Source of the DNA: a virus | Length of the DNA stretch: 44,356 bases | Reading direction: 5' to 3' (one strand) | IMG/VR virus record: IMGVR_UViG_3300044466_000065 | Coordinates: 1 to 44,356 of that record | Shown: positions 5,715-44,356 of the stretch, in pieces | Layout: every line of letters starts with the position of its first letter | Numbering within the stretch: the first letter of the stretch is position 1 | The notes under the pieces: model-generated | Databases searched by the model: none | What the model was told of the DNA's origin: nothing | What the model saw: the letters and a program-made list of their open reading frames with translations, nothing else | Made by a program: the position numbers and the translations under genes

Positions 5715-5721
5715 AGGTACA

Positions 5722-11775: not shown

Positions 11776-11966
11776 ACATCGAGCGGGCCTGCTGTACCTG
11801 CCAATGGTGGGATCGGAAGAGCTTCAAGAAAGCGGAGCGCAACACCGGCTGGTGCCGCATCCTTCCGCCGAGGAATAACGGCGGAGACGAATCGTACTGG
11901 GGCTGGCCTCTCACCTACGACGAAGATTGGTGCAGCCGGTATCAGCCGCGCGAGGAGGCGAAGTGA
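11772..11966 (+). CDS. Small Cys/Trp-rich protein (tandem paralog 1)
   Basis: ATGA-coupled; CCTCQWWDRK...GWCRILPP...WCSRYQP. Confidence 0.6.
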   Translation: MNIERACCTCQWWDRKSFKKAERNTGWCRILPPRNNGGDESYWGWPLTYDEDWCSRYQPREEAK

Positions 11967-12160
11967 TGGACAAGATCTGCCGGAACTGCAGCAACTGGTC
12001 AGCTCGCAACACCGACGTCGGAATTTGCACCCTCAACCCGCGGGTCTGGGCCGGTAGCTGGGAGTACCCTGCGCAGTTCGCTATCGACACCTGCAGCCAC
12101 TTCGAGGCAACCACCGTGCTCGCGCCCGTCGCGAAAGGGAAGGGCAAGAGTGCTGCCTGA
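11966..12160 (+). CDS. Small Cys/Trp-rich protein (tandem paralog 2)
   Basis: TGATG coupling; CRNCSNWSAR...GICTLNP...TCSHFE has the same cysteine spacing as the upstream gene. Confidence 0.6.
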   Translation: MDKICRNCSNWSARNTDVGICTLNPRVWAGSWEYPAQFAIDTCSHFEATTVLAPVAKGKGKSAA

Positions 12161-12404
12161 CTGGCTTCTCCTCCTGTGGTGGCAGATCTTCCCGCCGCCC
12201 ATGATCTGGATCAGAGTCGTCTGCCACGGCTACCATGATGGCGAGAACGAAATCCAGATCCGCATCATGCGCCTCAACGTGCGCGGCCCGTTCTCCTCTA
12301 CGCTCGAGCGCATCGTACAGCAGGGCGGCATCATCACGCCGCACCAGTTCGTGCCGCTCGCCAAAGTCTTCACCGTGGAGGAGATCGATGGCCAGGCACT
12401 TTGA
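12150..12404 (+). CDS. Hypothetical protein (start uncertain: GTG 12150 or ATG 12201)
   Basis: ORF bridging neighbours with short overlaps. Confidence 0.45.
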   Translation: MLPDWLLLLWWQIFPPPMIWIRVVCHGYHDGENEIQIRIMRLNVRGPFSSTLERIVQQGGIITPHQFVPLAKVFTVEEIDGQAL

Positions 12405-13602
12405 GAACTGGCTCAAGGCGTACATGAGTTACACCGCGGCGACAGAACCGCCCGCCATTTTCAATTACTGGGTTGGGGTGAGTACCATCGCGGCCGCCTT
12501 GCAGGGGAAGGTGTATCTGGGAATGGGTTTATTCGAGTGGACTCCCACTTCGTACATCATCCTCGTCGGACCCAGCGGCTGCGGCAAGTCGAGCGCCATT
12601 CACTCCGGCATGAACCTGCTGCGCCAGGTGAAGGGAATTCACTTCGGGTCCGACACCCTGACGTGGCAAGCGATGATCGACGAGCTGCTCGCCACCACCG
12701 TCACCCGCGGCAAGGGCACGCAGCGCCGCCACTCCTCGATAACGTATGCCGTCGATGAGCTGGGTACTTTCTTGAACCCACGCGACAACAAGCTGATGTC
12801 GAGTCTCACGAAATTGTGGGGCGGAGACGGCGGGCAGAACTTCTCGAAGTCGACGAGGGGCGAAGGATTGCTGGAGGTGATGCGGCCGCAGCTTAACCTT
12901 CTGGCCGGCGCAACGCCATCCTGGATATCGGAGCATCTGCCCCCCGCGCTGATCGGCGGCGGGTTCACCAGCCGCTGCGTACTCGTGTATGCCGAAGCGA
13001 AGCAGAACCTGGTGGCCTACCCGCGGCGCGCGAGTTTGCAGCAGGGACTCGGCGAGGTGTGGAAGATGGGACCGAAGCTCACCGAGGATCTGGTTGCCAT
13101 CTCGAAACTGCAAGGCGAGTTCACCCTCAGCGAAGAAGCGTATGCGCGCGGCGAATCCTGGTACGAGCAATCATCGAAGCTGCCTCCAGTGGGTCTGCCC
13201 CCAGAACATTTTTCCGGTTATTTAAATAGGCGCCAGGCTCACATGCATAAGCTCGCGATGTCGTTGAGTGCGGCTGAAAACAATTCGCTGATCATCGAGT
13301 CCCGGCATTTGGATGAAGCCATCATGATGCTCGAGACAACGGAGAGAACCATGCCGGTAGCCATCGCCGGTCTCAATGAGGAACTTCGTCCTGCGATCCG
13401 GGTCGAAGAAGTTCTACGCCGGTATGGCTCTGTAAACCAAGTCGATCTCTACGCTCGGTTCAAAAACAAAATGGACTGGCGGACTTTTATACAAATCCTG
13501 AAGCAGCTTGAAGACGCCGGCATGGTTTGCGAAACACACACCGCCACCGGCCGCGCGGTGCGCTGGCTCGGAGCACAACCAAAAGACTCGCTGCCGAGTT
13601 AG
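12388..13602 (+). CDS. DUF3987-like P-loop NTPase (putative replicative helicase or primase-associated)
   Basis: GGAGGAG RBS then ATG 12388 (MARHFENW...); Walker A ILVGPSGCGKSS; VDELG; overall layout typical of DUF3987 phage proteins. Confidence 0.8.
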   Translation: MARHFENWLKAYMSYTAATEPPAIFNYWVGVSTIAAALQGKVYLGMGLFEWTPTSYIILVGPSGCGKSSAIHSGMNLLRQVKGIHFGSDTLTWQAMIDELLATTVTRGKGTQRRHSSITYAVDELGTFLNPRDNKLMSSLTKLWGGDGGQNFSKSTRGEGLLEVMRPQLNLLAGATPSWISEHLPPALIGGGFTSRCVLVYAEAKQNLVAYPRRASLQQGLGEVWKMGPKLTEDLVAISKLQGEFTLSEEAYARGESWYEQSSKLPPVGLPPEHFSGYLNRRQAHMHKLAMSLSAAENNSLIIESRHLDEAIMMLETTERTMPVAIAGLNEELRPAIRVEEVLRRYGSVNQVDLYARFKNKMDWRTFIQILKQLEDAGMVCETHTATGRAVRWLGAQPKDSLPS

Positions 13603-16600
13603 CGCGGCATCGGATACGTGTCAGGGTAGAGACCCTTCAGGCGATCCCGCATGAATTGGCGCTGCCGATGCGGACCGGCAGGCGTGCCGCTCTCCTCGAG
13701 ATTCTGTTTCTTGTCGCGCATCATGAAGCTTCGGTGATACGTCCCCAGAGTGCGCTCGAAACTCTGCGGCAGAATCTTGTTGATCTTGGCGATCTCCTCG
13801 TGGACTAGCGCCCGTTCCTCCGGGTTGCCCGTCCGGCTATAGGCGGCATTATATTTGCGCTGCATCCCGTCGAGCAGCCCGTTGTAGTAGATCGACAATT
13901 CCGCATTGGCATACTGCTGCTCCTGCGCCTTGGCCGCGCGGCCGGACCGGGCACCGAGCGCCACGCCCACCACCTCGGCGACATGCGAGGGATTGGATGT
14001 GTCGATGCCGACGACCTTCTCGCCGCTGGCGCTGCTGATCTGCTTGTCGCGCAAGGTTTCCCTCGCCCGCTCCGCTCTCGCCATCCAAGCCGGCACGAGC
14101 GCCTTGAAGACTTGCTCCGACACCGGGCCGCCTTCGACGGCAGCCTTCATGGCAGTCATGAGTTGGCCGCCCCACGGGCCACCCACTTCCTCGCCTATAT
14201 TCCAGAACCCTGTCTTGGCGTTCATCCTGCCGCCGAACATCTTGATGACCTCGTCTACGCCCGGGATGGGATCCGCCTGGCTGAAGGCGTCTTTCAAATC
14301 GTACGGGCCGATCTTGCTATTCGCACCGTTGATGGCATAGTCGGCCACTTCCTCACTCGTGGACCGGGCGATCAGTTCTCGGACCGTCTGCTGGATGTCG
14401 AGGTAGGGATCCTTCGTACCCATCCACTTCCGGAACCAGGTGCCGAGCGCATTGATCAGAGCCATGAGGGGTGCGGCTCCCAAGAAACCCCGGAGGCCGC
14501 CGAGAAATAACTGCGTGATGAATAACTTCTTCTTGGCCTGGCTCTGCGTCTGAAGCCAGATGTTATTCATCAGGAAACTTTTGAAGATGAGCGGTATCGC
14601 CAGCCCGCGCTGGAGCATGGAACGGTTCGAAGGCTCATGGCTCCCCTGCGCCTTGAGCACCACATCCCTGGCTGCCATGTAGGGATCGGGGTGGCCTTGC
14701 TTGGCGAAGGCCCGGGAGCCAGCCAGGAGACCGACACGCCGGGTCCACTCCTCGCTCCACTGGTGGCCGGCCAGACTCCATTCGCCGAACGTCTTGAAGA
14801 GCTTGTCTATCCCCCGGCCCACGCCCTGCACGTCGGTTCCCCCCTCCTTGCCGAAGCCGAGGGGATGGAGGCCGAAGATGCCGGTGAGTCCCTGCTCGAA
14901 GGTGGAGATGTTGGCGAGGCCGGCGATCTGGTGGGCGTTGCTGTCGCCGGTCAGCCCTTCGCCCCGGCCCCGTTGCAGCACTGCCCAGTCCTCTTCGGAG
15001 AGGCCACCGGTGTAGTTCTCCTGGTAGGTTTCGTACTCGCCGCCACCGCGCAGCTTCATCCGCACCTTGTGGCTAGTCCGGTCATAGGCCCGCTTGGTGT
15101 AGACCTTGGTCACATCATGCATCGCCCGCGTGATTTCCCAAGCGGCTCTGGGCATGCCGACCTCGGCCGACAACACCTGAGCGACGTTGAGCACCTGGAC
15201 GAAGTTCTGGTAGATCTGCACGGGACCGAAGCCGAGGAACCAGGTAGCGGCGGCGCCGACGATCGAGTTGTTCTGCACCTTCGGATTGAGAAGGGCGGTC
15301 TTGGTGTCCTTCATCAGGTCGGTCAGGCGGTTGACGTGCGAGGTGTCGACGATGACGTTGCTGCCGCTCACCATCTCGTTGCGCCACTTTTCCGCATCGA
15401 GTACGGACTGCTCGAGGTTCCCGCGCTGCTCCGTCCGCCCGATGTGATTGGCAATCGAGGAGACGTAGGCGGAGAAGGCGCGCTGCGCGTCCCGGCTGAA
15501 GCCCTTGGTTCCCTTGCGGCGGTTCAGGCGGGAGAAGAAGGAGCGCTGGTTCATCGAGGCCGCGATGATCTGGTCGAACGCCGCTTCGAACGTGGCACGC
15601 TGCTCGGCGGTCAGGTTGAGATCCGCCGCGAGTTTGCCGGCCAGTTTCCTGGTGACGGCAGGCGGAAGATACCCGGCATCCCGCGCCTCGGCGGTGGTAT
15701 TCTCCATGATCCTGATGCCGCCGGGTTCGATGGTAATCCCTTCGTCCCGGTAGCGCTCCTCCATAGCCCTGGCCGCATCCTTGGCGGCGTGCTCGGTCGG
15801 GAGGTGCTCGACCTGATCGACTTGCAGTTTGCCGTTGGCATCGCGCCTCTTGGCTACGACCATCCACTGGCCGAAGCGATCCAGAGGAAAATAGTTTCCG
15901 CGCATCTTCTCGTCGAACTGCGCGTTGATCTCGGCGGTGGCTTTGGCAAGTGCATCCGGGTCGGAGATCTCGCGCTGGAGTTCGGAGATCGTCGCCTGCC
16001 GCAGCGCTTCCCAGGAGTCATGGAAGAACTGCTGGATCTGGTGGTAGACCTCGTAGCCCTTTTCGCTGACGCCGTAGAGGTCGCCGGTACGGGCCAGTTC
16101 CTCGGGAGAGAGCTTGCGTTGAAACGTGTCGCTCGCCTTGGTGGCGGCAAAGGCCAGATCGCTGACGGCTTGCGCCTGCTCCGATCCGAGATTGCGCCAT
16201 GCCTTGGCGATCTCCCCGCCCCGGTCCTTCCACCGGAAGACTTCTATCTCCAGCCGGTCCTTGGCCTTGAGCATCGCCTGGATGGGAGCGAAGTCCTTGA
16301 ATTTCCAGGCCGCCCAGCGGAACTGGGTGAGGAGGCGCTGCAACCTTCCGAAGCTTTTGACCGAATCTTTGAAGCGGTCTGCGGGAGGAAGGTTCGGGTT
16401 GGTGGCATCGGGCATCGCGCCCAACGGAGGCAGCGGGGGCGGTTCCACCCGGGCCTGACCCGGCAGTGGGGGAGGCTGCCCGGAAACCTGCGCTGGCTGG
16501 CCCTGTAGCGAGCCGGTGGGCTGGGTGGCTGTGACGGACGCCGGACGGGCAGCGGGCGCTCCTGGGCTAACTGGCGGTGCAGCAGAGGGCATCAGCCGAG

Positions 16601-19400
16601 CCTTCATCGAGATGTCAGCAGGAAGCTCGCGGTTCTGGTGGAACCCAGCAGCAATCGATTGCTCCGGGTAGTCAGCCTCGATGAGCGGGTGGTTGGTCGG
16701 GATGTCGACGTAGTAGACACCGCCGTTACCCGCCACCTGCTTATCAGCGTAAGCCTGAGCATAGACGGGATCACTGGAAAACCAGCGAGGCCCGTCGATG
16801 GGCACGTCCTTCGCGCCTCCGCTATACATCCGAGTCATGCCGGGTTTCGGCGGTGGCGGCGCAGCAGCGGGCATTCCTGCACGCCTCTCCGCTTCGACAA
16901 TCTTCTCCGCCTCCTGGAATATGTCTATCGCCGCCATCCGCACCTGCGGACCGTACTTGGCCACGATCGCCTCGACGAAATTCCCAACATGAATCAATCC
17001 ACGGGCCACGTCGCCCCGGATCGAGAGCGCCATCTTGCTGATGACTTTCGGATCGAGGAAGGCGCCCATCGAAGCCCGTCCGCCGGTGAAGAGACCCATC
17101 TTGCGGAGTTCTTCGTCGGCTGCTTTGCCTTCGGCATCCCACTTGTCGAGCGTACTCTGAGGCACAGGTTCCTCGACCCCCGCAGCCTGGAGAGTACTGT
17201 CAACGAACACATCCTCGCTGCGCGCAGGCTGAGGGCCGGTCGGGGTATCTACCACCATGTCGGCATCGGGAGCCTCAGGCTTCAGGGTTGTCGGCCTACT
17301 CCAGTCGATGTTTCCCTGCTCGTCCGTCGAGATGCCCTGTTGGGCGAGCCATGCCCGGTACTCGGGCACGTTGATGTTTGGCCCAGGTGCTGCCGCAGAG
17401 GGAGGTGCCACTGGCTGCGGAGGCTGGACATTGACGCCCGGCCGAACAGCTCCGATATCGTGGAAGCGCGGCTCCGGCGTTCGCCCCTGTGCCTCTTCCA
17501 CGCTCTTCGCCCACGTCAGCAGATCCGCTCTCGTCGGCGCAGGTTCCGGTGCGGCTACCGATGGTGCCGGTTCGGGGGTAGTCTCCCAAACCTCGATCAG
17601 CTTCTGCCGGATGTCCACAGCCTGCGGGTCTTCCGATCCCAGCCACTCCCACAGAAGCTCGTGCACCTGCGGGTCGTTGGGATGCACCGGGTCACCCCGC
17701 ATCGACAACCGGCGACTTATCTCTTCCCGCGCATCGCCAAGCAACACGGCAGCCGGGTCCACCACCCTCTCCTGCGGGATCACGCCGGCGCGCCGCTGCT
17801 CCTGGCTCTGCCTTTGGAATACCTGCGCCGACTGCTCGGCAGGACTCGTTCCCGGGGCAGGCGTCTGCGTCGGACCCGTTAACCCGAAGGCTTCGGCTGA
17901 TGCACGGGCCGAGGGAATCATGCCTGTTCCGGGGGGAGTCGGTGCGTAAGGAAGCGGCGGAAGCGGTGGCACCGGGCGACCACTGTAGTTGAAGTCCTGG
18001 AGTTGCCGGGTGCGGAACACCTCGGCGGATTCTTCAGCCGGACCCGGTGGCGGCGTCGGTATCGGCGGGCCGAAGGCTTCAGCGGATCTACGGGCTGCAC
18101 CTCCCCCAGGACTGAGATCCTTAGGCGGCACTCCGGTGGCAGGTTGGATGATGAACTGAACCGGGGGCGCGGCTTTCGCGTTGTAGGCGTCGAAGTTCAT
18201 CGTCCGCTTGGTCATCGGTGAGGGCTTCTCCGGGCGATGCGCCAGATGCCCGCCGCCCTCCATCAGGAAGCTGAAAAGGAATGTCTCGAATAGCCGCCAG
18301 AACGTGTCGGTCTGCGGGATGTTGTAGTACTTCTCATGCAGGATCGCCATGATCTCCTGCACCAACTCGGTGATGGAACCGACACTAGCCGTTGCGAGAA
18401 ACCCCTTGGTGATACCTCGCATGGCGAGGAAGGGAGCAACGCTGTTGAGAGCAGCGATGAAAGCACCGACTCCCACAGAGGAGCCGGGCGCTTTGACGCC
18501 GAGCTTTTCCATCTCGTTGTAGCGTTGCCCGATATCGTTGGTGGCGCTCGCCACGAAACCGCCAAGGGGACCACCGGCGATTGTGCCCGCTACCGTGAAG
18601 GCCATCGGGCCGAACATCTTACCCAGCCTGAACCCGGCGTAGTCCATGATCGTGGACTTACCCGTCGCCACGTCCTCGTGGGTTGGCCCCTCATAATCCA
18701 TGTAACTCCGGAACGTCGGATCGGTGATCCACGGCTTCTTGAGTTCGCCAATATCCTCGGAGAGAGGTTTCTTTTTCTTGTATTTGTCTTTGACTAAACT
18801 CGCCTTGGCGTTTTCCTGTGTCGCGACTAAGGCTTGGAGGGTGGCAATGGCATTGTTGGGCAAGTCTTTCAGACTCGCCGCCGCGCCCTGCGCCCCTAGG
18901 ACCGCACCCGGACCAACGGATGCCCTGACTCCCGTATTGACCGCCTGCCGCATGATGTCGGGTAAGTTGGCGGGTGCAGGCTCAGGCCCACCAGGTGCCA
19001 ATCCCGGAGGCAACGGAGGCGGAGGCACTACTGGAGTCCTGGTGGTTATCGTCGTGCGTCCATCCGGACCCACTGACGAGGTCACATACTGAGGACGTGC
19101 CACGGTGAGTTGAGGCACGCCGCTGACGCGAGGCGCAGGCGCACCAAAGACAGGCGCAGAGGGACTCTGTTGAGGAAGCCCCCCTGTTGCAACCGCCGGG
19201 GATACCGCCGTTGCCGACGGAGCTTGGCCCACCGGCACCACGCCAGTGGGCATAGGTTGAGCAGCAGTGGGAGCAACCCCCACGGGAATGACTCCCGGCG
19301 GCATGGGTAGGGGTGCTCTACTTACCCCGGCAGGAGCACTCACGGAGACGCCGCTTATTGGAATAACTCCAGGCGGCATGGGAAAAGCTCGGCTGCTCAT
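13599..19400 (-). CDS. Giant virion-associated protein, PLxRFG-domain type (1,933 aa)
   Basis: NYFPLDRFGQW motif (DNA 15870-15887); Pro-rich N-terminal repeats MPPGVIP; hydrophobic segments; last gene of the structural module. Confidence 0.88.
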   Translation of the reverse strand: MSSRAFPMPPGVIPISGVSVSAPAGVSRAPLPMPPGVIPVGVAPTAAQPMPTGVVPVGQAPSATAVSPAVATGGLPQQSPSAPVFGAPAPRVSGVPQLTVARPQYVTSSVGPDGRTTITTRTPVVPPPPLPPGLAPGGPEPAPANLPDIMRQAVNTGVRASVGPGAVLGAQGAAASLKDLPNNAIATLQALVATQENAKASLVKDKYKKKKPLSEDIGELKKPWITDPTFRSYMDYEGPTHEDVATGKSTIMDYAGFRLGKMFGPMAFTVAGTIAGGPLGGFVASATNDIGQRYNEMEKLGVKAPGSSVGVGAFIAALNSVAPFLAMRGITKGFLATASVGSITELVQEIMAILHEKYYNIPQTDTFWRLFETFLFSFLMEGGGHLAHRPEKPSPMTKRTMNFDAYNAKAAPPVQFIIQPATGVPPKDLSPGGGAARRSAEAFGPPIPTPPPGPAEESAEVFRTRQLQDFNYSGRPVPPLPPLPYAPTPPGTGMIPSARASAEAFGLTGPTQTPAPGTSPAEQSAQVFQRQSQEQRRAGVIPQERVVDPAAVLLGDAREEISRRLSMRGDPVHPNDPQVHELLWEWLGSEDPQAVDIRQKLIEVWETTPEPAPSVAAPEPAPTRADLLTWAKSVEEAQGRTPEPRFHDIGAVRPGVNVQPPQPVAPPSAAAPGPNINVPEYRAWLAQQGISTDEQGNIDWSRPTTLKPEAPDADMVVDTPTGPQPARSEDVFVDSTLQAAGVEEPVPQSTLDKWDAEGKAADEELRKMGLFTGGRASMGAFLDPKVISKMALSIRGDVARGLIHVGNFVEAIVAKYGPQVRMAAIDIFQEAEKIVEAERRAGMPAAAPPPPKPGMTRMYSGGAKDVPIDGPRWFSSDPVYAQAYADKQVAGNGGVYYVDIPTNHPLIEADYPEQSIAAGFHQNRELPADISMKARLMPSAAPPVSPGAPAARPASVTATQPTGSLQGQPAQVSGQPPPLPGQARVEPPPLPPLGAMPDATNPNLPPADRFKDSVKSFGRLQRLLTQFRWAAWKFKDFAPIQAMLKAKDRLEIEVFRWKDRGGEIAKAWRNLGSEQAQAVSDLAFAATKASDTFQRKLSPEELARTGDLYGVSEKGYEVYHQIQQFFHDSWEALRQATISELQREISDPDALAKATAEINAQFDEKMRGNYFPLDRFGQWMVVAKRRDANGKLQVDQVEHLPTEHAAKDAARAMEERYRDEGITIEPGGIRIMENTTAEARDAGYLPPAVTRKLAGKLAADLNLTAEQRATFEAAFDQIIAASMNQRSFFSRLNRRKGTKGFSRDAQRAFSAYVSSIANHIGRTEQRGNLEQSVLDAEKWRNEMVSGSNVIVDTSHVNRLTDLMKDTKTALLNPKVQNNSIVGAAATWFLGFGPVQIYQNFVQVLNVAQVLSAEVGMPRAAWEITRAMHDVTKVYTKRAYDRTSHKVRMKLRGGGEYETYQENYTGGLSEEDWAVLQRGRGEGLTGDSNAHQIAGLANISTFEQGLTGIFGLHPLGFGKEGGTDVQGVGRGIDKLFKTFGEWSLAGHQWSEEWTRRVGLLAGSRAFAKQGHPDPYMAARDVVLKAQGSHEPSNRSMLQRGLAIPLIFKSFLMNNIWLQTQSQAKKKLFITQLFLGGLRGFLGAAPLMALINALGTWFRKWMGTKDPYLDIQQTVRELIARSTSEEVADYAINGANSKIGPYDLKDAFSQADPIPGVDEVIKMFGGRMNAKTGFWNIGEEVGGPWGGQLMTAMKAAVEGGPVSEQVFKALVPAWMARAERARETLRDKQISSASGEKVVGIDTSNPSHVAEVVGVALGARSGRAAKAQEQQYANAELSIYYNGLLDGMQRKYNAAYSRTGNPEERALVHEEIAKINKILPQSFERTLGTYHRSFMMRDKKQNLEESGTPAGPHRQRQFMRDRLKGLYPDTYPMPR

Positions 19401-29335: not shown

Positions 29336-30550
29336 TTAGATGACCACCATATTGCCAATGTAGGCGCAGGTTTCCTCGGCGAGCACCTCGAGTCCGCACT
29401 CGGTGAGCCAGCCGTCGATGATCGAGTCGGTGCCCTTGTCCTGTTGATCCTCCATCAGCTTGGTATCGCGGAGGAAGCGGTACTTCAGAACCGTGGGATC
29501 GAGGATGAAGGCTGCATTCGTATACTGCGCGTGCACGTTCATGAGCGGGTGCGTCTTGAACCCGATCTGCCCCTGCGGCAGGGTCCACACATTGAGGTTC
29601 ATGCCGAACATTTTGACGATGCCGTCCTGGTTGATGACCGAATCGGTCTTAGCCAGTTTGTTCAGCGAATTCAAAAACCCATTGCCACAGAATGCGATTC
29701 TCTGATCGCCGGCGCGGGTATCCCAGTTCCAAATCGGGTACGTCGCATCCATGAATGTGGAGGTCGTAATACCCGTGCTGGATTGGAAGATGGTCACGTT
29801 CGAAGTGATGAAGCTCCGGAGGCCGCCCGTGGTGCGGGTCAGGTTGCCGGTGGCTTGCGGCGAGGGGTCGACGACTTCCGAGGCCAGCCCGTACAGGAAC
29901 TGCATCTCGATGTCGCGGCCGTGAGCAAATGTCGCGCGCTCCCGGTCGTTCTTGTAGGCATCGCCGGTGCGGGCAAAGGTCTTATCGGCGGTGCCCGTAA
30001 CGGCCCAATTCGTGCGGAAGATCTGGCAGTAGTTGGTGTACTTGGTCGGGTTGTTCGAGACGCTAGCAGGGCGAGTCGAACCTTCGCCGAACGCCGTGCC
30101 GAGCGCGGTCAGGAAAGTGCCGCCGGTGGTGAGGGCCACAGGCGTGGTTCCAAACTGGCCGCGCTTGAGCACCACCGTCGTATCGTTTGTGACCGACGAT
30201 ACAAGAGCAATTTCGACGTTGGCCGCCACGTAGGACACCGGCTCGGTGGTGCCGATCGTGTCGACCTTGATGAGTTGGTTGGGGCGAAGCGCGAGGGCGC
30301 CGCCGGTCACCGTGAGTGTGCCGGCAGTGGTGGCTCCGGCTGCGGTCAGCGTCAAGCGGATGACGGTGTTGCGCTCATTCCACCACGAGAACTGCGGATC
30401 AGTCACCGAGGAAGAACCGAGCTTCTCGGTGAGGGCAAACAGCGGCGACTTGCCGTTGGGGTTGAGGAAGAGGATGGTCTCCCGGAAAGATTTGGGGCGC
30501 TCGTCGGTGCCCCAGTCATCGGTGGCGCGAACGCCTGCGAAAAATGCCAT
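29336..30550 (-). CDS. Major capsid protein (HK97-fold type)
   Basis: 404 aa; AGGAGAA RBS; follows the scaffold gene; composition and length typical of podovirus capsid proteins. Confidence 0.85.
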   Translation of the reverse strand: MAFFAGVRATDDWGTDERPKSFRETILFLNPNGKSPLFALTEKLGSSSVTDPQFSWWNERNTVIRLTLTAAGATTAGTLTVTGGALALRPNQLIKVDTIGTTEPVSYVAANVEIALVSSVTNDTTVVLKRGQFGTTPVALTTGGTFLTALGTAFGEGSTRPASVSNNPTKYTNYCQIFRTNWAVTGTADKTFARTGDAYKNDRERATFAHGRDIEMQFLYGLASEVVDPSPQATGNLTRTTGGLRSFITSNVTIFQSSTGITTSTFMDATYPIWNWDTRAGDQRIAFCGNGFLNSLNKLAKTDSVINQDGIVKMFGMNLNVWTLPQGQIGFKTHPLMNVHAQYTNAAFILDPTVLKYRFLRDTKLMEDQQDKGTDSIIDGWLTECGLEVLAEETCAYIGNMVVI

Positions 30551-31610: not shown

Positions 31611-31929
31611 TTTCAATCTCTCGCTTCAGTACTTCGATGGCATTTCGCCAGTTTTCGGCGAGGCGCTCGGGAGCCTGCCGGGCCATGTCAAGCCCCTCGC
31701 AATATCCCTGGAGGATTGCGGATTGTTGGAGCTGCTCTCCCACCAGGGGCTTAGTCGCAAGCTCATCGCGCTTATAACGAAGAATGGCTCCGAGCTCACG
31801 GCGCAATATACGCCAGCCTGGGTGCTGCTCAAGAGCTTCAAGGTGGGTGACGTCATTGCGGTGCTCCGCCAGCTCCGTTGACCATGCTTGCAATCGCTGC
31901 TGTCGGACTTGTTCCGGGGTATCCGCCAC
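31594..31929 (-). CDS. Hypothetical protein (start uncertain; overlaps the portal 3' end)
   Basis: 111-aa helical ORF; GTG 31929 or TTG 31893. Confidence 0.5.
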   Translation of the reverse strand: MADTPEQVRQQRLQAWSTELAEHRNDVTHLEALEQHPGWRILRRELGAILRYKRDELATKPLVGEQLQQSAILQGYCEGLDMARQAPERLAENWRNAIEVLKREIENVEEE

Positions 31930-33793
31930 CGCCTTCGCCTCCCATTGCCTGCCCCGCGGGGACTAGATTTCCGGCCTGCGCCTGCTGCATCGCCGCCTCA
32001 TCCGGGGTGATCCGGAACTGCGTGATGTTCTTCAAACCCGCCAGACTCGCCATGTGCCCGAAGATGCGCGAGATGTCGTACTGCTGGGCGATCTGCGGGT
32101 TCTTCCCGATCACCGAGAAGATCTCTTTCCACAGCGTTGCTTGCGCGAACCGGTCCACCGGCAGCGTGCCGTCGACGGGCACGTAATCGAATTCGCCCGT
32201 GATCATGGTCTTATCGACGTTGACGAACTTGGTGCCCTGCATCAAGTCCCCCGCAATCCTAAACATTTTTTCTTGGTCGTAAAACTGTTGTAAGTTCGCC
32301 ACCATTTTGCGGGATAGGCGGCTCCATCCCAAGGCGGAGGCGAAGTCGCAGAAGGTCTTCATGCGGTTCGCCCCCTGCGCGGCGGCGGTGCGTACTTCGG
32401 TAGCCGTTTTTCGCCCACGCCCGAGCGAACCCATGAGGGAATCATTCGACCCGGTGATCTGCTGCATCAGCCCTTCGGTGAACTGCGTGTCCGAGAGATG
32501 CCCTCGCGTCGGGTCGACGTTCATCAGTTCAGCGACGGCAGACCGCACGTCGGTGCCATAGCCTGTGCCCGGGCGCATGCGGACGATCCGTCCGGGTCCG
32601 CCGTCGATCAAGTCTTTCACATTGATCCTGTCCGGATCGATGATCAGATTGCCGTTGAGCGAACGCCGCACCGAGAACATGTGCGTGTTGTAGAGCCAGT
32701 TGATCACGTCGTTCAGCGGCTTGGTGACTTCCATCATGCCGCGCGTCGAGGTGTCGTAGCCATCGGTCTCCCAGGCGATCACGTCATAGGGGAACTTGCA
32801 ATGGCGCAAACCGAGCGGCGAAGCTTTGATGATCACCGAGTTGTTGGCGACGTAGAATTCCCACTTCTGGTAGTACTTTCCAGGCAGCTTCCACTCCGCT
32901 GGAATCACGTTCACCACTACCCGGAAGATGCCGACTTTGCCAGATTTGAGATCTTTCGAATCCCAGATCTTGTCGGCAGCAAGCATGTTGTCTTTCGAAC
33001 CGGAAGTCGACGGAGCCATGACATTGCCGCCCACGCCAAAACTGCCGCCTTCGAGTTCATCGAGATTAAACAGATCCCACTCGTTCTTCATCGAGCGGAG
33101 ACGGTCAATGCCCATGAGTAGGGTATGTCCGCAGAACTCGCCGTCCTGAAAATTAACGAGGGGGACGCCGGGATCTGGATAGAAATCGTAGGGCCTACAG
33201 TTGGTCAGGATGTTGCCGCAATACCCCTCGACCCGCTCCTCAACCAACTCCCAACTGGGATCGGCACCCAGATCAATCCCACCGAGGGTGGGAGCCATTG
33301 GGACATACTCGGAGAAGATCTCAGAGCGCTTGACGTAGTCGGAGGAAACTACCCCGAGTCCATACTTTATCGAATCAATGAGCCAGATATACTCATTAAC
33401 TGCCATGTCTCCAATGTCCTGATTGTATGCGATTAACGCCTCTAAACATTGAGTACTTTGCTCAGTTTCTCCATGCCTTCCGCGATATTGCCACACTGGG
33501 TCGCGGCCAAGAAACACACTAGTCGCGTAAGTGTGTGATGTCAACGCAAGGGCGTAGCTGTAAGGCAGTATCACTTCGCTGAACTGCGATGCGGACCCCT
33601 GTTCCCGCGCTCTCTGCTTCTTCGAGGACATCTCTGTCTCTGGCAAATAAGCCCTAAATAGATCCTCAGATTTCCGCCATTTCTCGTGACGAGAAGACAT
33701 TCTATTCCTAGAACCCTGGAACAAATGGAGGATTTTGTCCAGAATCTCGCGGTGAGTCTCAGAATCAAACGGCACGGTAAACTTGCCTCTCAT
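31853..33793 (-). CDS. Portal (head-tail connector) protein
   Basis: ATG 33793 after a GGGGGG RBS; about 646 aa; EVILPYSYALALTSHTYATSVFLGRDPVWQYRGRHGE resembles podovirus connector proteins; lies between TerL and scaffold. Confidence 0.85.
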   Translation of the reverse strand: MRGKFTVPFDSETHREILDKILHLFQGSRNRMSSRHEKWRKSEDLFRAYLPETEMSSKKQRAREQGSASQFSEVILPYSYALALTSHTYATSVFLGRDPVWQYRGRHGETEQSTQCLEALIAYNQDIGDMAVNEYIWLIDSIKYGLGVVSSDYVKRSEIFSEYVPMAPTLGGIDLGADPSWELVEERVEGYCGNILTNCRPYDFYPDPGVPLVNFQDGEFCGHTLLMGIDRLRSMKNEWDLFNLDELEGGSFGVGGNVMAPSTSGSKDNMLAADKIWDSKDLKSGKVGIFRVVVNVIPAEWKLPGKYYQKWEFYVANNSVIIKASPLGLRHCKFPYDVIAWETDGYDTSTRGMMEVTKPLNDVINWLYNTHMFSVRRSLNGNLIIDPDRINVKDLIDGGPGRIVRMRPGTGYGTDVRSAVAELMNVDPTRGHLSDTQFTEGLMQQITGSNDSLMGSLGRGRKTATEVRTAAAQGANRMKTFCDFASALGWSRLSRKMVANLQQFYDQEKMFRIAGDLMQGTKFVNVDKTMITGEFDYVPVDGTLPVDRFAQATLWKEIFSVIGKNPQIAQQYDISRIFGHMASLAGLKNITQFRITPDEAAMQQAQAGNLVPAGQAMGGEGGGGYPGTSPTAAIASMVNGAGGAPQ

Positions 33794-33863
33794 GAGAGTT
33801 CCCCCCAAAGAAAAGTCATCGAGGAGAGGGCGATGACCGCCAGCAAAAAGGCATCGAGGTTGT

Positions 33864-34257: not shown

Positions 34258-35769
34258 TCATGGGCAGAGCCTCCAGCCCGCGGTCTCGAGTTGTTTCATG
34301 GAACCTTGACCGGCTAGATCGTTGAAGTCGCCCATGCCGTCGCCGAGTTCGAGCACGAGTGATACGGCCATCGCCGTGGCGTCCATCAGATCGTCATGGT
34401 CGCAGCCGGGGTAGGTCTCCCACTGCGCGAGCCAGTCGATCATGTCACGCCGCACGTAGAGTTTCCCATTCGAGGCGAGGCCGGCGAGCGATTGCCGGAT
34501 GCGGATGGGCTTGGCGCGCTGGTCCTTGTAGATCTCGACGACGTGGAAGCGGCCGCGCTTCTTCATCTGCTCGTCGAGGTACCACTTGAGCGTGGCCTGA
34601 TAGGCGATGCCTTCCACGCGGCAGCGGATGGGTTTCCATTTCCCGGCGAGTTCGAAGAACTTATTGGCGGACCAGTCCGGATGGTGGCTGCGGGAAGTGG
34701 ACATCTCGAGCACGTAGACATCGCGATTGGCGGTCATTCCGACGATAACGTGCGCCTCGAAGTCCTTCGACGACATGCCTCCCGCCACCTGTGCGGCGCT
34801 TGGAGGAGGCACAGGATCAATAGCATAAGCGGTGACCATATTGGCGGGAGGTGTTTCATAGAAGCGAAGGTCAGAGGGGCGGAAGAACTGGCCTTCGTCC
34901 GGCACCAGCCAACATAGCTTTTCCCGCGCGAAGTAGGCCCACTGATTCTCACGGCGCGCCGCGGCTTCCTCCCGGTCGATCTCCTCGCTGGGGAAGCGTT
35001 CCTCCCACCGGCTGCGCCCCGCCTCATCCCGGATGCCGAACTTTCTGAACTTGTAGTCCGGGTTGTGCTCGGCCTTGGCGATGAGATCCTGCGGCCGCAT
35101 GGGCGTATTGGAGAGCACCATCTTGCGATTGGGCGCTTCACTGCGCGGAGCCATCGTATTGAAGATCGAGGCGTAGACGAGTTCGTTGAGCTTGGCGCGC
35201 TGCGTCTCGTTGCCCACGTTCTCCTCGGTCTGCACGTCGTCGAGGATCACCAGGTCCGGGCGGAAGTTATTGATGTTGAGGCCGCGCACCGAAGAGGTGA
35301 TGCCGAGGGCGACGAGGGTGATGGTGGTTTCTGGTTTCTGCGGCGCAAAGCGGCAGAGGATGTCGAGGCGGTCGGAATTCCACACGCTGCCGGGGCGCAG
35401 GCCGAACACCTGCGCGAAGGAAAGACCGTCCTCGGAGTTCCCTTCGATCAGCCGGCGCAGCCAGTCGCCGGACTCATGCGCCTTGTCGGTCGATGCGCCG
35501 AGGTAGGCGATGGTGCGCGAGGCACGATAGGCGACCGACCAGGCCACGAAGGAGCGGAGCAGGGTGGTCTTGGCTCCTCCCCTGAAAACCGAGAAGGCGG
35601 ACAGATTGACGTCAGGATCAATCAGGTCGGCCCACATGTCGCGGTGGAATTCCGGGCTCGACTGGCGGAAGGCAGAGGGGAAGAAGGTGCGGCAGAACAG
35701 CTCCCCGTCGGTGGCGCACAGCGATACTAATTCGTTGAGGTCGACGGACGGGGAGCGTGCCTGCTTCAT
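34258..35769 (-). CDS. terL: Terminase large subunit
   Basis: Walker A-like VFRGGAKTT, Walker B DLVILDD, C-terminal nuclease-like half; 503 aa. Confidence 0.9.
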   Translation of the reverse strand: MKQARSPSVDLNELVSLCATDGELFCRTFFPSAFRQSSPEFHRDMWADLIDPDVNLSAFSVFRGGAKTTLLRSFVAWSVAYRASRTIAYLGASTDKAHESGDWLRRLIEGNSEDGLSFAQVFGLRPGSVWNSDRLDILCRFAPQKPETTITLVALGITSSVRGLNINNFRPDLVILDDVQTEENVGNETQRAKLNELVYASIFNTMAPRSEAPNRKMVLSNTPMRPQDLIAKAEHNPDYKFRKFGIRDEAGRSRWEERFPSEEIDREEAAARRENQWAYFAREKLCWLVPDEGQFFRPSDLRFYETPPANMVTAYAIDPVPPPSAAQVAGGMSSKDFEAHVIVGMTANRDVYVLEMSTSRSHHPDWSANKFFELAGKWKPIRCRVEGIAYQATLKWYLDEQMKKRGRFHVVEIYKDQRAKPIRIRQSLAGLASNGKLYVRRDMIDWLAQWETYPGCDHDDLMDATAMAVSLVLELGDGMGDFNDLAGQGSMKQLETAGWRLCP

Positions 35770-38433: not shown

Positions 38434-39201
38434 TTATCCTTGACCGAGCTGGCCTCGGAGCCACTGAATCAACTGCGCTTGTTGGGGATTGGACTGCGAA
38501 GGATCATACGTCGAGGTGGGGGTCGAGTAGTTCCACATGCCATTCTCGTCAGCGCGAGAGACGGTGGGAGCGGGGCCGCCCCAGCCGGTGTTATTGATGC
38601 CGGCGGCGTAGCGGGCGGCTATGTCCTCTGGGCGGTCACCCCGCTGGAGTTGGAACGCGCCCATCCCCGCGTCCTGGATATCTCCCTTGCCGAAATCGAG
38701 GCCGTAGATGGGAGCACTCGGGGCGGAGGAACCGGGCGAGGCCATGTTGTTGAGGTTCTGCGAAACGACATTGGCGCCGAAGGTCTGCCCGACCTTACCT
38801 GCGGCTTCGGGAGTTAAATAATTTGTGTTCGGATTACCGGGGGAAGCGAAGCTCACAGGCTGATCGTTGATCGACGCACCCACGTTCTGCGCCCATGGGT
38901 TCTGGTCACCCCAGAAGCCGCCGGTGCCTGCGGTGGAGGGGGGAGGCGGGAGTCCGGGGTTGGTTTGCGGCGTCGAGGGCGGAGTGGAGCCGCCCGCGAG
39001 TGGACCTTGGACGCCGGGCTGCTCGTAGCCGCCGGTGGCGGGTGGATGCTCCCCCATCCCCGGAGGGATTTGCCCCGGAGGCGCTCCACCGCCGAGGATG
39101 GGCGTGCCGGGGAGCGAGGCGAGTTGCTGGCCGAGACCGCCGCCGCCGAAGAATGGGTTGTCGATCGGGCGGCCGAATTCATCGAGCTTGGTGGCAGCCA
39201 T
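38434..39201 (-). CDS. Gly/Pro-rich hypothetical protein
   Basis: 255 aa; low-complexity N-terminal half and globular C-terminal half. Confidence 0.72.
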   Translation of the reverse strand: MAATKLDEFGRPIDNPFFGGGGLGQQLASLPGTPILGGGAPPGQIPPGMGEHPPATGGYEQPGVQGPLAGGSTPPSTPQTNPGLPPPPSTAGTGGFWGDQNPWAQNVGASINDQPVSFASPGNPNTNYLTPEAAGKVGQTFGANVVSQNLNNMASPGSSAPSAPIYGLDFGKGDIQDAGMGAFQLQRGDRPEDIAARYAAGINNTGWGGPAPTVSRADENGMWNYSTPTSTYDPSQSNPQQAQLIQWLRGQLGQG

Positions 39202-39332: not shown

Positions 39333-39439
39333 GGATGCAGTATATCCTTGCCCTTTGTTTTCTGCCAGAATTAAACGAGCCGCGTGGCGTTCGAGCGCCA
39401 CCCGACTCTGACCGAATGCAATCTGTAGAGGAGATCGCA

Positions 39440-39982
39440 ATGGCTGACATCCAGTCTAAACCGCTTGCGCCATTATCCGAGAAAGACCGCGCCAAATTCC
39501 CGTCGAAAGTAGACAGGCGCTCCGATTCGGAGTGCTGGTTGTGGAAGGGTAGAGTTTCTGTCAATGGGTACGGAATGTTTCCTTGCTTTGGGAAACGCGC
39601 CATTAAAGCCCACAGAATCGCCTATTTCCTCGAGTACGGTATTGATCCTGGTTCGCTCTGCGTGTGCCACAAATGTGATCAAAGGTTGTGCGTCAATCCA
39701 AACCATCTGTTCCTTTGCACCAAGCACGAAAACGCGCTGGATGCTTCTGCCAAAGGACGGCTGAAGTGGAAAGACGATCACCTCTGGCGAAAACATCCGG
39801 AGGAGGTGCTGCACGGGGAACGTCAAGGTATGGCGAAGCTGAAGGAGACCGAGGTCGTCGAGATTCGGAAGATGTACGCCAGCGGCTTATGGCTTCAACG
39901 AGAGATCGCCGCCAAGTTCGGGGTGGCTATGAGCCGGATCTCTGCTATCGTCACCCGAAAGCACTGGAAACACATTCCATAA
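39440..39982 (+). CDS. HNH homing endonuclease (HNH_3-like) with C-terminal HTH
   Basis: GGAG RBS; ECWLWKGRVSVNGYG...KAHRIAYFLEYGIDPGSLCVCHKCDQRLCVNPNHL. Confidence 0.88.
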   Translation: MADIQSKPLAPLSEKDRAKFPSKVDRRSDSECWLWKGRVSVNGYGMFPCFGKRAIKAHRIAYFLEYGIDPGSLCVCHKCDQRLCVNPNHLFLCTKHENALDASAKGRLKWKDDHLWRKHPEEVLHGERQGMAKLKETEVVEIRKMYASGLWLQREIAAKFGVAMSRISAIVTRKHWKHIP

Positions 39983-40012
39983 AAAAAGGGCACCCGCTAG
40001 AGGAGGGTGCCC
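39981..40012 (-). terminator. Rho-independent terminator (for the PEP-CTERM gene; may also act bidirectionally)
   Basis: Minus-strand reading GGGCACCC-tcctctagc-GGGTGCCC followed by TTTTTTT. Confidence 0.75.
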
Positions 40013-40055
40013 TGAGTTTCGTAGTTGTTTAATCTTCCTGGAGGAGAAGATTTGC

Positions 40056-40763
40056 TTATCCTACAACCTTTCGCTTGGCCGCGTAAAGACCGATCAAACC
40101 AGCGCCCATAAGGGCGTAGGTGGCAGGCTCGGGGACGACATCGCACTCGGTGCCGACGCAGAACGGATCCACTCCCGGCGCGGCGTAGAACTGATCGATC
40201 AAACTGATCGTCGCGTAGCCGAGGCCCTCGGTATCGGAGCCCACCAGGAAAATGTCCTTGATGATGCGAAGATCGCGATAAGGGCCATCCAGAATGGCTA
40301 TATCCGCAAGCGGACCGCCGGGAGCATCCACCTGAGCCTGACCGGCTACATGGAGGAAGGGCACGGTGCCAAGGACAGTCTCCACCACTTGGGCGAACGA
40401 CTGGTCGCCGACGACGGCTCCGTTAAACAACAACCCCACCGCGCCGAGGGCAGGGAACAACGGATTCACCGAGAGGTCATAGGCGATCACGAAGTCAGCC
40501 GAAGCAAAGCCGCCGTTGCTGAGAGCGGTGAAGCCGCCGGCAAAGCGGATCTGGTTATTGACGAGGGTGACATCGATGCCGCTGGCGTCCAAGGGGGCAC
40601 ACACGCCGATGCCGCCGCAGGTGCGGGTGAACTCGAAGTTATCGATGGTCAATAACCCGCTCGAAAGACTACCGCCGGGGAGGAGGAGCGTTGATAACAA
40701 AGTGGCGCTGGCGGGGGAGAGCGAGGCGAGCGCAAGCAGGGACGCGAGGACGAGAGTTCTCAT
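40056..40763 (-). CDS. PEP-CTERM sorting-domain protein (secreted or cell-surface)
   Basis: Signal peptide MRTLVLASLLALASLSPASA; C-terminal VPEPATYALMGAGLIGLYAAKRKVVG gives PEP motif, TM helix and basic tail. Confidence 0.85.
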   Translation of the reverse strand: MRTLVLASLLALASLSPASATLLSTLLLPGGSLSSGLLTIDNFEFTRTCGGIGVCAPLDASGIDVTLVNNQIRFAGGFTALSNGGFASADFVIAYDLSVNPLFPALGAVGLLFNGAVVGDQSFAQVVETVLGTVPFLHVAGQAQVDAPGGPLADIAILDGPYRDLRIIKDIFLVGSDTEGLGYATISLIDQFYAAPGVDPFCVGTECDVVPEPATYALMGAGLIGLYAAKRKVVG

Positions 40764-40841
40764 GAGAATGGACCTTTCGGAAAGTGCCCTTTCGAACGGG
40801 CACTCGTGGAAGCAAGATTACCAGAGGAACATGACGTTCCG

Positions 40842-41312
40842 CTATACCGAAAATCCGGCGGCGCGCAGCTCGGCGGTGCGCTGCTCGATGGCGGCAGCTT
40901 CCCCATCTTTCTCTTTGTCGAAAGCCCACCAGCCGGCCGAATAGACTTCCCACAGGTCGTCGCCGTTATTGACCACGAGCCAGTACTGCGATTCGGTGAC
41001 ATAGCCGTCGGGGGTGGGGACTAAGATGTCGAAGATCAGACTGGGCCAGTTCTCCTTTGCCCACGCCAGTACGCCGTCAGCCGTCGCCTCGGTCGGATAG
41101 TCGACGGGATTGAGCGGGTAAACCGGCGTGGTAAAGCCATAGCCGAGGTTCACGCTCCAGGGGCGGTTGTAGGTGGAGGGGCCGACTTCCTCACGGTTGT
41201 GGGTATAGTAGAGCTTCTTGTTCCACGGGCTATAGAGATAGCCCTTCATCGCGCGGACGAGGATCTTCGAGGGATCGATGGCGGCGGCGGCGGATTCTTC
41301 CTGGTCTGGCAT
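40842..41312 (-). CDS. Hypothetical protein
   Basis: AGGAGAAGAA RBS then ATG 41312; 156 aa, Trp/Tyr-rich. Confidence 0.7.
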   Translation of the reverse strand: MPDQEESAAAAIDPSKILVRAMKGYLYSPWNKKLYYTHNREEVGPSTYNRPWSVNLGYGFTTPVYPLNPVDYPTEATADGVLAWAKENWPSLIFDILVPTPDGYVTESQYWLVVNNGDDLWEVYSAGWWAFDKEKDGEAAAIEQRTAELRAAGFSV

Positions 41313-41329
41313 TTCTTCTCCTGGACGGA

Positions 41330-41827
41330 CTATTTCAAAATGGAATCTAAGCTTTGAAGGGGAGTGGCCTTGGCTTTGAGCTTGGCGACCTGCGCCACCA
41401 CGTCGGACCGGCTCGAGACTTCGCGGCGCTTGTCGACGGGCAGCGAATAGAACCGCGCGGCGGCGTCGGCCTCGGGAATCTTGAGCAGGATGGCCAGGGC
41501 CCGCACCGTGATGCTGTGCGATTTCTCGCCGCGGCGCAGACCCCAGTCTCCTGACTTTAAGAGGTCGAACAGTTTGTCCGCCTTCTGACGGGCCGCCTCC
41601 GGCGAGCCGCGAGCGGTGCAGTACGCCTGCTGAATCCGGGCAATCAGTCCCCAATAGAGAAGGTCATCTATCACATTCTGCGGGAGTTCCGCTAGATTGT
41701 ACACCGACTGCTGCCCGTCTTTCCAGTCAAAATAAAGGAGGCCGGTTTTGGTGTCCCAATCGATCCGCGAAGTAATGTGAAGCGGCGTGCGGCGCTTGCC
41801 GTTGGGGGATGGTTCAGAATCAGGCAT
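41330..41827 (-). CDS. Hypothetical protein
   Basis: 165-aa ORF after an AT-rich intergenic region. Confidence 0.68.
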   Translation of the reverse strand: MPDSEPSPNGKRRTPLHITSRIDWDTKTGLLYFDWKDGQQSVYNLAELPQNVIDDLLYWGLIARIQQAYCTARGSPEAARQKADKLFDLLKSGDWGLRRGEKSHSITVRALAILLKIPEADAAARFYSLPVDKRREVSSRSDVVAQVAKLKAKATPLQSLDSILK

Positions 41828-41946: not shown

Positions 41947-42360
41947 TTATTTTCCGAGGTCAGCGAGGAAAGCAGCCACGATGGGATCAACAGGGGTTCT
42001 GCTTTTATTGTTCATCTGCTCTTTCGGAGTGGCCCACCGGACATTGCCGGGTTCGTAGTTGCCGTTGTTGTCGATCCGGTCGATCCAATGTTTTGTGGAC
42101 GGCTTCGGACCAACATGCTCGTAGAAGGCCAGAAAGTCCTGCCGCCACTCCTGGCAGATGGTGATACCGCGTCCGCCATAGTTGTGGTAGCTGATGTGTT
42201 TAGGATTGGTGCAGCGGCTAATCATCCCATGCCAAGCTTCATATTCGGCGCTCCATCGCATGCCGTGTTGGCGCTTCCGGCGGGGATGTACAATCGGGGT
42301 TGGTGGCAATGGGTTCCTCCAGAACTCTTTGCTGCTTGGCTCGCGGTGCTCTAACACCAC
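41947..42360 (-). CDS. AP2-like DNA-binding / homing-endonuclease-associated protein (paralog of 6922..7335); start uncertain
   Basis: EAWHGMISRCTNPKHISYHNYGGRGITICQEW...WIDRIDNNGNYEPGNVRWAT. Confidence 0.7.
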   Translation of the reverse strand: MVLEHREPSSKEFWRNPLPPTPIVHPRRKRQHGMRWSAEYEAWHGMISRCTNPKHISYHNYGGRGITICQEWRQDFLAFYEHVGPKPSTKHWIDRIDNNGNYEPGNVRWATPKEQMNNKSRTPVDPIVAAFLADLGK

Positions 42361-44229: not shown

Positions 44230-44356
44230 ACCGAAGAGCTGGTTCTGAGCTGGCAGTGGCGGTAAAAGCCCCGTGAGTTGACGGGCAGACTACCCCCATT
44301 CGAGGGTTTTTACCCCCACTTGGACGAAATCCCCGGCGAAACAGGGCGGAGGCGCA
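44230..44356. repeat. Terminal direct repeat, copy 2 (circular-assembly overlap)
   Basis: Exact 127-nt copy of bases 1-127 at the end of the window. Confidence 0.95.

Follow-up and report, generated by a model that had tools for sequence, protein, structure and literature searches.

The window analysed here, meaning the whole 44,356-nucleotide stretch of IMG/VR virus record IMGVR_UViG_3300044466_000065, carries on its minus strand a gene for a PEP-CTERM protein (40056..40763, ATG start, 235 amino acids). We expect, with a probability of roughly 0.6, that this gene is an accessory single-gene cassette whose product the host exosortase directs to the infected cell's surface or matrix. Because an exact direct repeat of 127 bp occurs at both ends of the window (bases 1-127 are identical to 44230-44356), we regard it as a complete phage genome of ~44.2 kb, the 127 bp representing a terminal repeat or the overlap of a circular assembly. 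By all testable features save exosortase co-occurrence, which needs a host, the predicted product is, judged from its sequence, a genuine member of the PEP-CTERM class. An earlier reading, made from the letters of this DNA without database searches (the sequence-only reading), had proposed that the phage delivers a substrate for the host exosortase pathway, and this interpretation is supported in every part that could be tested computationally; surface remodelling and superinfection exclusion, which it also put forward, are roles that we infer.

The signal peptide, VPEP motif, hydrophobic helix and KRK cluster that had been described for this gene are all present in the open reading frame (ORF). 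At the N terminus, MRTLVLASLLALASLSPASA followed by TLLST has, by inspection, the n-h-c layout of a Sec signal peptide (residues 1-20; 40704-40763, minus strand), with a basic n-region (R2), a hydrophobic core, and ASA at positions -3 to -1 ahead of the T of the cleavage motif, a layout common to all homologues. The C terminus, VVPEPATYALMGAGLIGLYAAKRKVVG, comprises VPEP at residues 210-213, the hydrophobic stretch ATYALMGAGLIGLYAA, and KRK at residues 229-231. A search with the PEP-CTERM hidden Markov model had been proposed as a check, and two models of the sorting domain (residues 210-232; 40068-40136, minus strand) matched significantly: PF07589 scored 28.7 bits against a gathering score of 20.7 (E = 1.3e-6, residues 210-232 of 235), and TIGR02595 scored 23.3 bits against a cut-off of 16 over the same residues. 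The remaining NCBIfam matches, PepA, THxN, and XDP1 among them, involved the tail only and fell far below their cut-offs; the model for the flocculation protein PepA (NF033554) reached 28.6 bits of the 80 required, via the C-terminal tail only. The mature domain of the window protein matched no NCBIfam, Pfam, or PHROGs family, and no named PEP-CTERM subfamily includes the protein. By motif scan, the window has a single PEP-CTERM copy, as does each phage locus matched; one copy is expected, since the multi-paralogue trait (median 8) describes host genomes and not phages.

An AlphaFold2 model from a 31-sequence alignment (predicted local distance difference test score, pLDDT, 87; predicted template modelling score, pTM, 0.75) has helices at its N terminus and at its C-terminal end (residues 213-234), between which lie a sandwich of ~12 strands (residues 32-194) and a linker modelled with low confidence. 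The mature part has ~185 residues, and the modelled beta-sandwich domain (approximately residues 30-195, minus strand) accounts for ~19 kDa. Among 60 phage and cellular homologues, all complete phage copies included, P211 is invariant and E212 and P213 are nearly so, and the basic cluster is likewise kept. The mature domain is the most conserved part of the protein, with F43, D90, FNG113-115, E128, KD169-170, and Q191 kept from phage to cellular homologues. Two sets of cysteines are conserved as well (C49/C55, and FCV..C near residue 205), which fits an exported protein. Pairwise ratios of nonsynonymous to synonymous divergence (dN/dS) range from 0.07 to 0.32 at dS values of 0.7 to 2.8, and by this measure the ORF is under purifying selection.

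These patterns of conservation bear on the best placed of the alternatives, in which the protein would act independently of exosortase: its C-terminal helix would fix the beta-sandwich to the periplasmic face of the inner membrane, with a role in exclusion or lysis modulation, and the PEP motif would be a relic. Inner-membrane exclusion proteins are known from phages, including T4 Imm or Sp and P22 SieA. A signal peptide combined with a C-terminal transmembrane helix would give a type I, periplasm-facing topology even in an unprocessed protein, and no exosortase was found among the window ORFs scanned. On the exosortase reading, the host must supply the enzyme because the phage encodes none. 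However, dS values of 1 to 2.8 should have sufficed for a relic motif to drift, whereas the PEP residues and the basic cluster have been retained at low dN/dS, and we consider an exosortase-independent anchor unlikely.

The distribution of the cassette among related phages identifies it as accessory cargo. Group A consists of ~44-kb contigs syntenic with the window, to which eight further relatives were added by using the terminase as an anchor. The cassette is present in L001, L023, L030, L044, L048, and L073 and absent at the same locus from L070 (terminase 95% identical), L075, and L076. L070 keeps homologues of the flanking genes (41330-41827, 40842-41312, and 38434-39201 in the window), and its cassette is replaced by a 392-amino-acid ORF (L070 5065-6243) with a cytosine-5 methylase-like PCGPFS motif, read by eye; in L075 and L076, a short stretch of non-coding DNA (~345 bp in L075) lies between the two neighbouring genes. 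The cassette locus is a hot spot for variable cargo. Because the cassette is present or absent at the same locus among close relatives, the gene is optional at a variable locus, which is the behaviour that defines a moron. Its base composition is not distinct (G+C of 0.597 at 40001-41000, compared with ~0.60 genome-wide).

The gene recurs, with structured 5′ and 3′ untranslated regions (UTRs), in at least three unrelated phage backbones. In the ~65-kb phages of group B, it follows a 2294-amino-acid LPD38-domain protein and converges on DNA polymerase A; the looser group C (L016/L017, L021, and L011) has a phage replication initiator and, in L011, an integrase. The three groups are mutually unrelated in tblastx comparisons with the cassette masked. 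In a neighbour-joining tree, albeit a small one, the phage copies form one clade against two cellular sequences, and copies from backbones A, B, and C are interleaved within it. Altogether, the cassette is exchanged among at least three unrelated backbones along with its structured UTRs. A fourth candidate backbone, the 76-kb L027 with a 44%-identical homologue, was not counted because its phage nature is unconfirmed. The 13-bp palindrome GTTAGTSACTAAC was considered as a cassette boundary in the 65-kb phages and rejected, since it recurs about every 2 kb in those genomes; there are 10 to 11 copies per 20 kb in L003, L006, and L013 (for example, at 985, 3110, 5210, 6725, 9915, and 12447 in L003), lying between genes and inside large ORFs, and none in the window or in the other phage types.

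Upstream of the gene, we found a putative promoter, an RNA stem-loop, and a putative ribosome-binding site. The putative promoter, whose activity is suggested by sequence, is an extended -10-like element, TGGTAATCT (pattern TGnTAnnnT; 40813..40821, minus strand), at a position conserved in cassette loci of this phage type; it ends ~9 nucleotides upstream of the 5′ hairpin and lies 50 to 70 nucleotides upstream of the ATG across loci, and the group B phages have TGGTATAGT, TGGTATGCT, or TGGTATACT in its place. A hairpin of 7 bp had been noted in the upstream spacer by the sequence-only reading, and folding and covariation uphold it as a 5′ UTR stem-loop with a stem of 7 to 8 bp (AGUGCCC / GUUCGAAA / GGGCACU; 40782..40803, minus strand), probably at or near the 5′ end of the mRNA. 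The fold of the 82-nucleotide spacer is weak alone (z = -2.4, with 4 of 200 shuffles as good). Across homologous cassettes, 83% of alignment cells are paired at this stem, 5 of 6 pairs are changed on both sides, and 0 of 500 shuffles score as high, compared with 33 to 48% pairing in slid controls, although the sequences behind the covariation tests of both UTRs are few and related, such that the shuffle statistics overstate significance. Stem variants include GUGCCC/GGGCAC, GCCUC/GAGGC, and UGCUC/GAGCA, and group A and part of group C share the loop GUUCGAAA without variation, the stems around it differing by compensatory changes; group B has instead a longer 5′ hairpin centred on GAACGUUC. 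A Shine-Dalgarno-like GAAAGG (40773..40778, minus strand), read from the sequence, lies 9 nucleotides upstream of the ATG, with GGAAAGG or AGAAGGGA at this position in homologous cassettes. Each of the motifs CCUCCAGG, CGTTCGAAAG, and TGGTAATCTTG is matched exactly at the cassette; the promoter-like and 5′ hairpin-loop motifs do not recur elsewhere in the window, and the 3′ loop motif has three further exact matches there. Sigma-54 control has been described for proteobacterial PEP-CTERM genes (PMC1569441, PMC9850573), and a sigma-54 promoter was considered for the phage gene as well and rejected; no -24/-12 match was found in 40764-40900, even with 3 mismatches allowed.

Downstream of the gene, a conserved 3′ UTR module is the most unexpected lead of this analysis. 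Its first element, hairpin 1 (40031..40052, minus strand), was identified by fold and covariation and presents the loop CCUCCA (40039-40044) on a CU-rich/GA-rich stem. Across 13 distinct cassettes, 81% of cells are paired in hairpin 1, 5 of 7 pairs are changed on both sides (18 double-change cells), and none of 500 shuffles score as high, with slid windows at 42 to 59%; the CCUCCA loop is invariant across the covarying copies. A C/A-rich single-stranded linker, UAAACAACUACGAAACUC (40013..40030, minus strand), with a core, AACAACWAC, that is conserved in the alignment, leads to a Rho-independent terminator, GGGCACCC / UCCUCUAGC / GGGUGCCC plus U7 (39981..40012, minus strand). This terminator had been called strong, and the fold bears this out, with a GC stem of 8 to 9 bp, a 9-nucleotide loop, and seven U; the 81-nucleotide 3′ region folds at -26.9 kcal/mol (z = -3.9, with 0 of 200 shuffles as good). 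A consensus scanner missed the terminator because its loop limit is 8 nucleotides. The T-run overlaps the stop codon of a convergent HNH endonuclease gene (39335..39982, plus strand), and comparable GC-rich hairpins with a T-run lie 3′ of the gene in most other phage loci.

A covariance model of hairpin 1 and the C/A-rich linker (R1) matched the window at 40006-40053 with 46.8 bits and had 22 matches at an E value of ≤1, of which 21 were directly downstream of a PEP-CTERM ORF, including at loci outside model building; the sole exception was a weak match elsewhere in L006 (12.9 bits, E = 0.64). No R1 match was found elsewhere in the window or in cellular loci. No Rfam family reached its gathering score in 16 related loci. 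A full-model match to RF00519 (mmgR/suhB) fell below threshold, its 25.3 bits comparing with a gathering score of 41 (E = 0.012 for 1.4 kb and 0.0009 for 111 nucleotides), and we read it as shared layout rather than membership. In both elements, a short hairpin on the 5′ side is followed by a single-stranded linker and then by a U-tailed terminator hairpin; the CUCCC motif of mmgR is located in its linker, whereas the CCUCC-type motif here is located in a hairpin loop and the element is the 3′ UTR of a protein gene. In L075 (5162-5505) and L076 (~5710-6060), a non-coding unit with the same promoter-like element, a hairpin, and a terminator replaces the cassette. The hairpin loop of this unit contains GGAGGAG, the complement of the CCUCC loop of the cassette, and the unit could be a small RNA gene.

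It is conceivable that the cassette is a dual-function mobile unit among unrelated soil phages, joining an exosortase-sorted, glycan-binding protein to a 3′ UTR small RNA whose CCUCCA would pair with Shine-Dalgarno sequences and reprogram translation, but we consider this combination distinctly doubtful. If it were true, this would be the first tailed phage seen to exploit the PEP-CTERM/exosortase pathway. A further alternative gives the RNA precedence: a small RNA derived from the 3′ UTR and pairing with Shine-Dalgarno regions of host or phage mRNAs would be the selected cargo, and the protein would be secondary or co-selected. The invariant loop on a covarying stem, the confinement of the module to sites downstream of the PEP-CTERM ORF in three backbones (bar the weak match in L006), and the sub-threshold resemblance to mmgR over its full length would all suit such an RNA. 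However, the ORF is itself under clear purifying selection, and it is kept in the cassettes of L023, L024, L048, and L050, from which hairpin 1 is missing, and in L011, which has a different CCUCC-type hairpin that is unmatched by R1. Given also that Rfam yielded no family at threshold and that a role as 3′ stabiliser explains the hairpin equally well, we regard RNA as the selected cargo as improbable.

The regulatory features could also serve a decoy, that is, a highly expressed substrate that jams the host exosortase, keeps the PEP-CTERM proteins of the host from being sorted, and loosens the exopolysaccharide matrix, allowing progeny to escape the floc or biofilm. With its extended -10-like element, 5′ stem-loop, and strong terminator, the cassette looks built for strong, stable expression, and host PEP-CTERM proteins hold exopolysaccharide on cells (PMC9850573, PMC12188702). 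Yet a decoy would need the sorting tail only, and it is the mature domain that is most conserved and under purifying selection, such that we give a decoy a similarly slim chance.

The gene has a cellular origin. A word-indexed search returned 30 homologues at 36 to 88% identity, all metagenomic, while a profile search of 1.84 billion representative proteins returned 1131 clusters at an E value of ≤1e-3 and 307 at ≤1e-10. The distant members are mostly 210 to 250 amino acids long with the same three-part architecture, some tandem versions reaching ~450 amino acids, and are chromosomal where context is available (L009, L025, L026, and L029). In L009, three tandem PEP-CTERM genes (10001-12878) lie beside two-component and sigma-54 activator genes, and a perfect sigma-54 consensus, TGGCACTGGGATTGCA (13450-13465), is found within the array, upstream of the next gene. 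Source names include Acidobacteriota (MEP7362786.1) and Phycisphaerae (NLX21832.1). The best-scoring cellular homologue, L029, is adjacent to a CcsA gene whose product is 58% identical to CcsA of Phycisphaerae metagenome-assembled genomes, placing the contig near this class, and no homologue of the phage protein was found at those Phycisphaerae CcsA loci. We conclude that the phage gene descends from a large cellular PEP-CTERM family of the same protein size. A tblastn search of the protein against 50,697 GenBank phage records returned no match, and motifs of the phage clade found no relative among the 185,579 species genomes scanned. A chromosomal location is normal for PEP-CTERM genes (PMC1569441), as would suit host DNA mis-joined into a phage contig. 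However, independent assemblies, drawn from many samples and from three data sources, place the same gene at the same locus, the G+C content of the cassette equals that of the genome, and the species genomes searched yielded no close copy; the chance of such an artefact is negligible.

Phage-borne envelope morons include bor and lom of lambda, Llp of T5, Cor of phi80 and N15, and SieA of P22. The PEP-CTERM gene resembles them in being a small, independent, dispensable, and variably present gene with an envelope-exported product, for which exclusion or receptor masking is plausible, but it shares no PHROG or sequence similarity with them. Furthermore, the envelope morons rely on lipoprotein, beta-barrel, or plain membrane-helix targeting, whereas the protein described here uses an exosortase sorting signal. 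With cellular substrates of PEP-CTERM/exosortase systems (EpsH, XrtA), of which the floc protein PepA of Zoogloea and Aquincola is an example (PMC9850573), it shares a signal peptide, a variable mature domain, and the sequence of PEP motif, transmembrane helix, and basic cluster, and, like >65% of cellular PEP-CTERM genes, it is a single-gene unit with a non-coding leader (PMC1569441). It differs from them in being phage-borne and optional, in occurring as one copy rather than a median of eight per genome (PMC1569441), in having no sigma-54 element upstream, and in that no exosortase was found on the same replicon. PEP-CTERM-type tails have also been seen on HOG10 of the virus-like IME1 elements of Dehalococcoides (bioRxiv 10.64898/2026.09.15.751708), and exosortase-interaction tails on TIGR03118 proteins, host-derived genes on Yellowstone viral contigs (PMC11003980); both are other protein families on other elements. 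Both reports mention the proteins in passing, and mobility, selection, and flanking RNA are not analysed there (bioRxiv 10.64898/2026.09.15.751708; PMC11003980). We found no description of an exosortase substrate of a tailed phage and, for virus-like elements, just these two passing mentions, in a literature whose coverage was incomplete such that prior work is possible; the exosortase sorting pathway may not have been analysed before in tailed phages.

Several observations weigh against sorting of an exosortase substrate to the surface of the infected cell. The signal peptide was assigned by inspection and alignment conservation. For the mature domain, a Foldseek search against the PDB returned jelly-roll proteins, carbohydrate-binding modules (CBMs), and Bdellovibrio Bd1399 at E values down to 5e-7 but template modelling (TM) scores of just 0.3 to 0.48, below the TM score of >0.5 or sequence-profile match that we took to indicate a shared fold with CBM6, CBM32, CBM61, and similar modules. 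Distal domains of tail fibres were equally weak matches among predicted viral structures, and a sequence-profile search of the protein against the PDB found nothing. The modelled fold class, a beta-sandwich of the lectin/CBM type, is thus a weak resemblance, and glycan binding by the modelled domain is a guess. A strict sigma-70 scan did not call the TGnTAnnnT element, and a homologous element is also found in the cassette-less relatives L075, L076, and L070. Because the element is present in these group A relatives without a cassette, it may be a feature of the phage backbone rather than of the cassette. The sequence-only reading had called the cassette a self-contained moron; its own strong terminator, its absence at the locus from the same three relatives, and its presence in at least three unrelated backbones agree with a moron, and self-containment is shown in part, given the possible backbone origin of the promoter-like element. 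The copy in L074 (the same contig as L024; 4075-4756) is frameshifted, its alignment spread across three reading frames. This may reflect gene decay or else an assembly error, and since L074 carries it in this form, the gene is dispensable. The host searches yielded no host in which to confirm exosortase. Finally, no integrase, repressor, or other lysogeny gene was found among the window ORFs scanned, and classical lysogenic conversion is inapplicable; the phage is probably virulent, and the cassette is probably expressed during lytic infection.

That the replicon is a phage, as had been assumed, is confirmed by a PHROGs-based annotation of the minus strand, which includes genes for the large terminase (34258-35769), portal (31853-33808), and SU10-type major head protein of the capsid (29336-30550), together with tail fibre, tail, and DNA-ejection-like proteins, and by the identical ends. 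On the plus-strand arm lie genes for an N6/N4 methylase, for RecT-like and Gp157-like proteins, and for a primase; tRNA genes are absent from the window. Among cultured phages, Vibrio phage VS-ABTNL-3 and Microcystis phage Mel-JY34 come closest, with terminase and capsid proteins just 32 to 42% identical, and the hosts of cultured relatives span Vibrio to Microcystis. Syntenic ~44-kb contigs were recovered from other samples, related contigs measuring 43.8, 44.0, and 44.7 kb, and a related contig of 89.1 kb may, judged from its size, be a dimer. Four HNH endonuclease genes occur in the 44 kb (6835-7335, 11056-11775, and 39335-39982 on the plus strand and 41947-42360 on the minus strand). Two of them flank the PEP-CTERM cassette, the one at 39335..39982 converging on its terminator, and their number and positions vary among close relatives (L001, L023, and L070-L077), as those of homing endonucleases would. 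At the end of the structural module, a 1933-amino-acid ORF (13599-19400, minus strand) lacks Pfam domains, and its only matches are to PHROG families without an assigned function; the 2294-amino-acid LPD38-domain protein of the 65-kb phages occupies a comparable position. A 22-bp unit, CTGCGCGCTTCGCTTGCTCTGA, is present in two tandem copies, 95% identical, at 10510-10553 within the ORF at 10276-11049. The mechanically called ORF at 40842-41654 (minus strand, 270 amino acids, TTG start) is probably over-extended: its homologues in L070 and L075 have 156 to 158 amino acids, and the alignment starts at an internal ATG at 41310-41312. The real upstream gene would then be approximately 40842-41312, ending 20 nucleotides upstream of the promoter-like element of the cassette.

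Taken together, we propose that during infection the gene would be transcribed from a sigma-70-type (extended -10) promoter rather than a sigma-54 promoter, into an mRNA bracketed, and likely stabilised, by the 5′ stem-loop and the 3′ hairpins, including the terminator. Sec would export the product, which its C-terminal helix would retain in the inner membrane until the host exosortase cleaves it at the VPEP motif and passes it to the cell surface or the exopolysaccharide matrix, where the lectin/CBM-like domain may bind a surface glycan and tether polymer to the infected cell. PEP-CTERM/EpsH has been put forward as a sorting system in which most genes form operons of their own (PMC1569441). 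Furthermore, overexpression of PepA lowers soluble exopolysaccharide and raises bound exopolysaccharide (PMC9850573), and exosortase is required for PEP-CTERM proteins to enter the exoproteome and for polysaccharide adhesion, both of which are altered on its loss (PMC12188702). We deem a changed surface of the infected cell the most economical benefit to the phage; it could mask the receptor against superinfecting phages and the wasteful adsorption of progeny to debris, or it could keep the cell in a floc of susceptible neighbours.

That several unrelated phages share the cassette suggests that phages use the surface-sorting pathway of their hosts. Exosortase sorting is widespread in bacteria of soil, sediment, and biofilms and has received little experimental study, and a conserved, phage-mobile substrate maintained by selection would point to a role for the pathway in conflict between phages and hosts. 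The 235-amino-acid protein, compact and predicted to be strongly expressed, would offer a model substrate for exosortase processing, and the structured UTRs that accompany the ORF would be a clean natural example of regulatory RNA moving with a moron. For several uncultured lineages of soil phages, host prediction would be narrowed to bacteria with an outer membrane, exopolysaccharide, and an exosortase.

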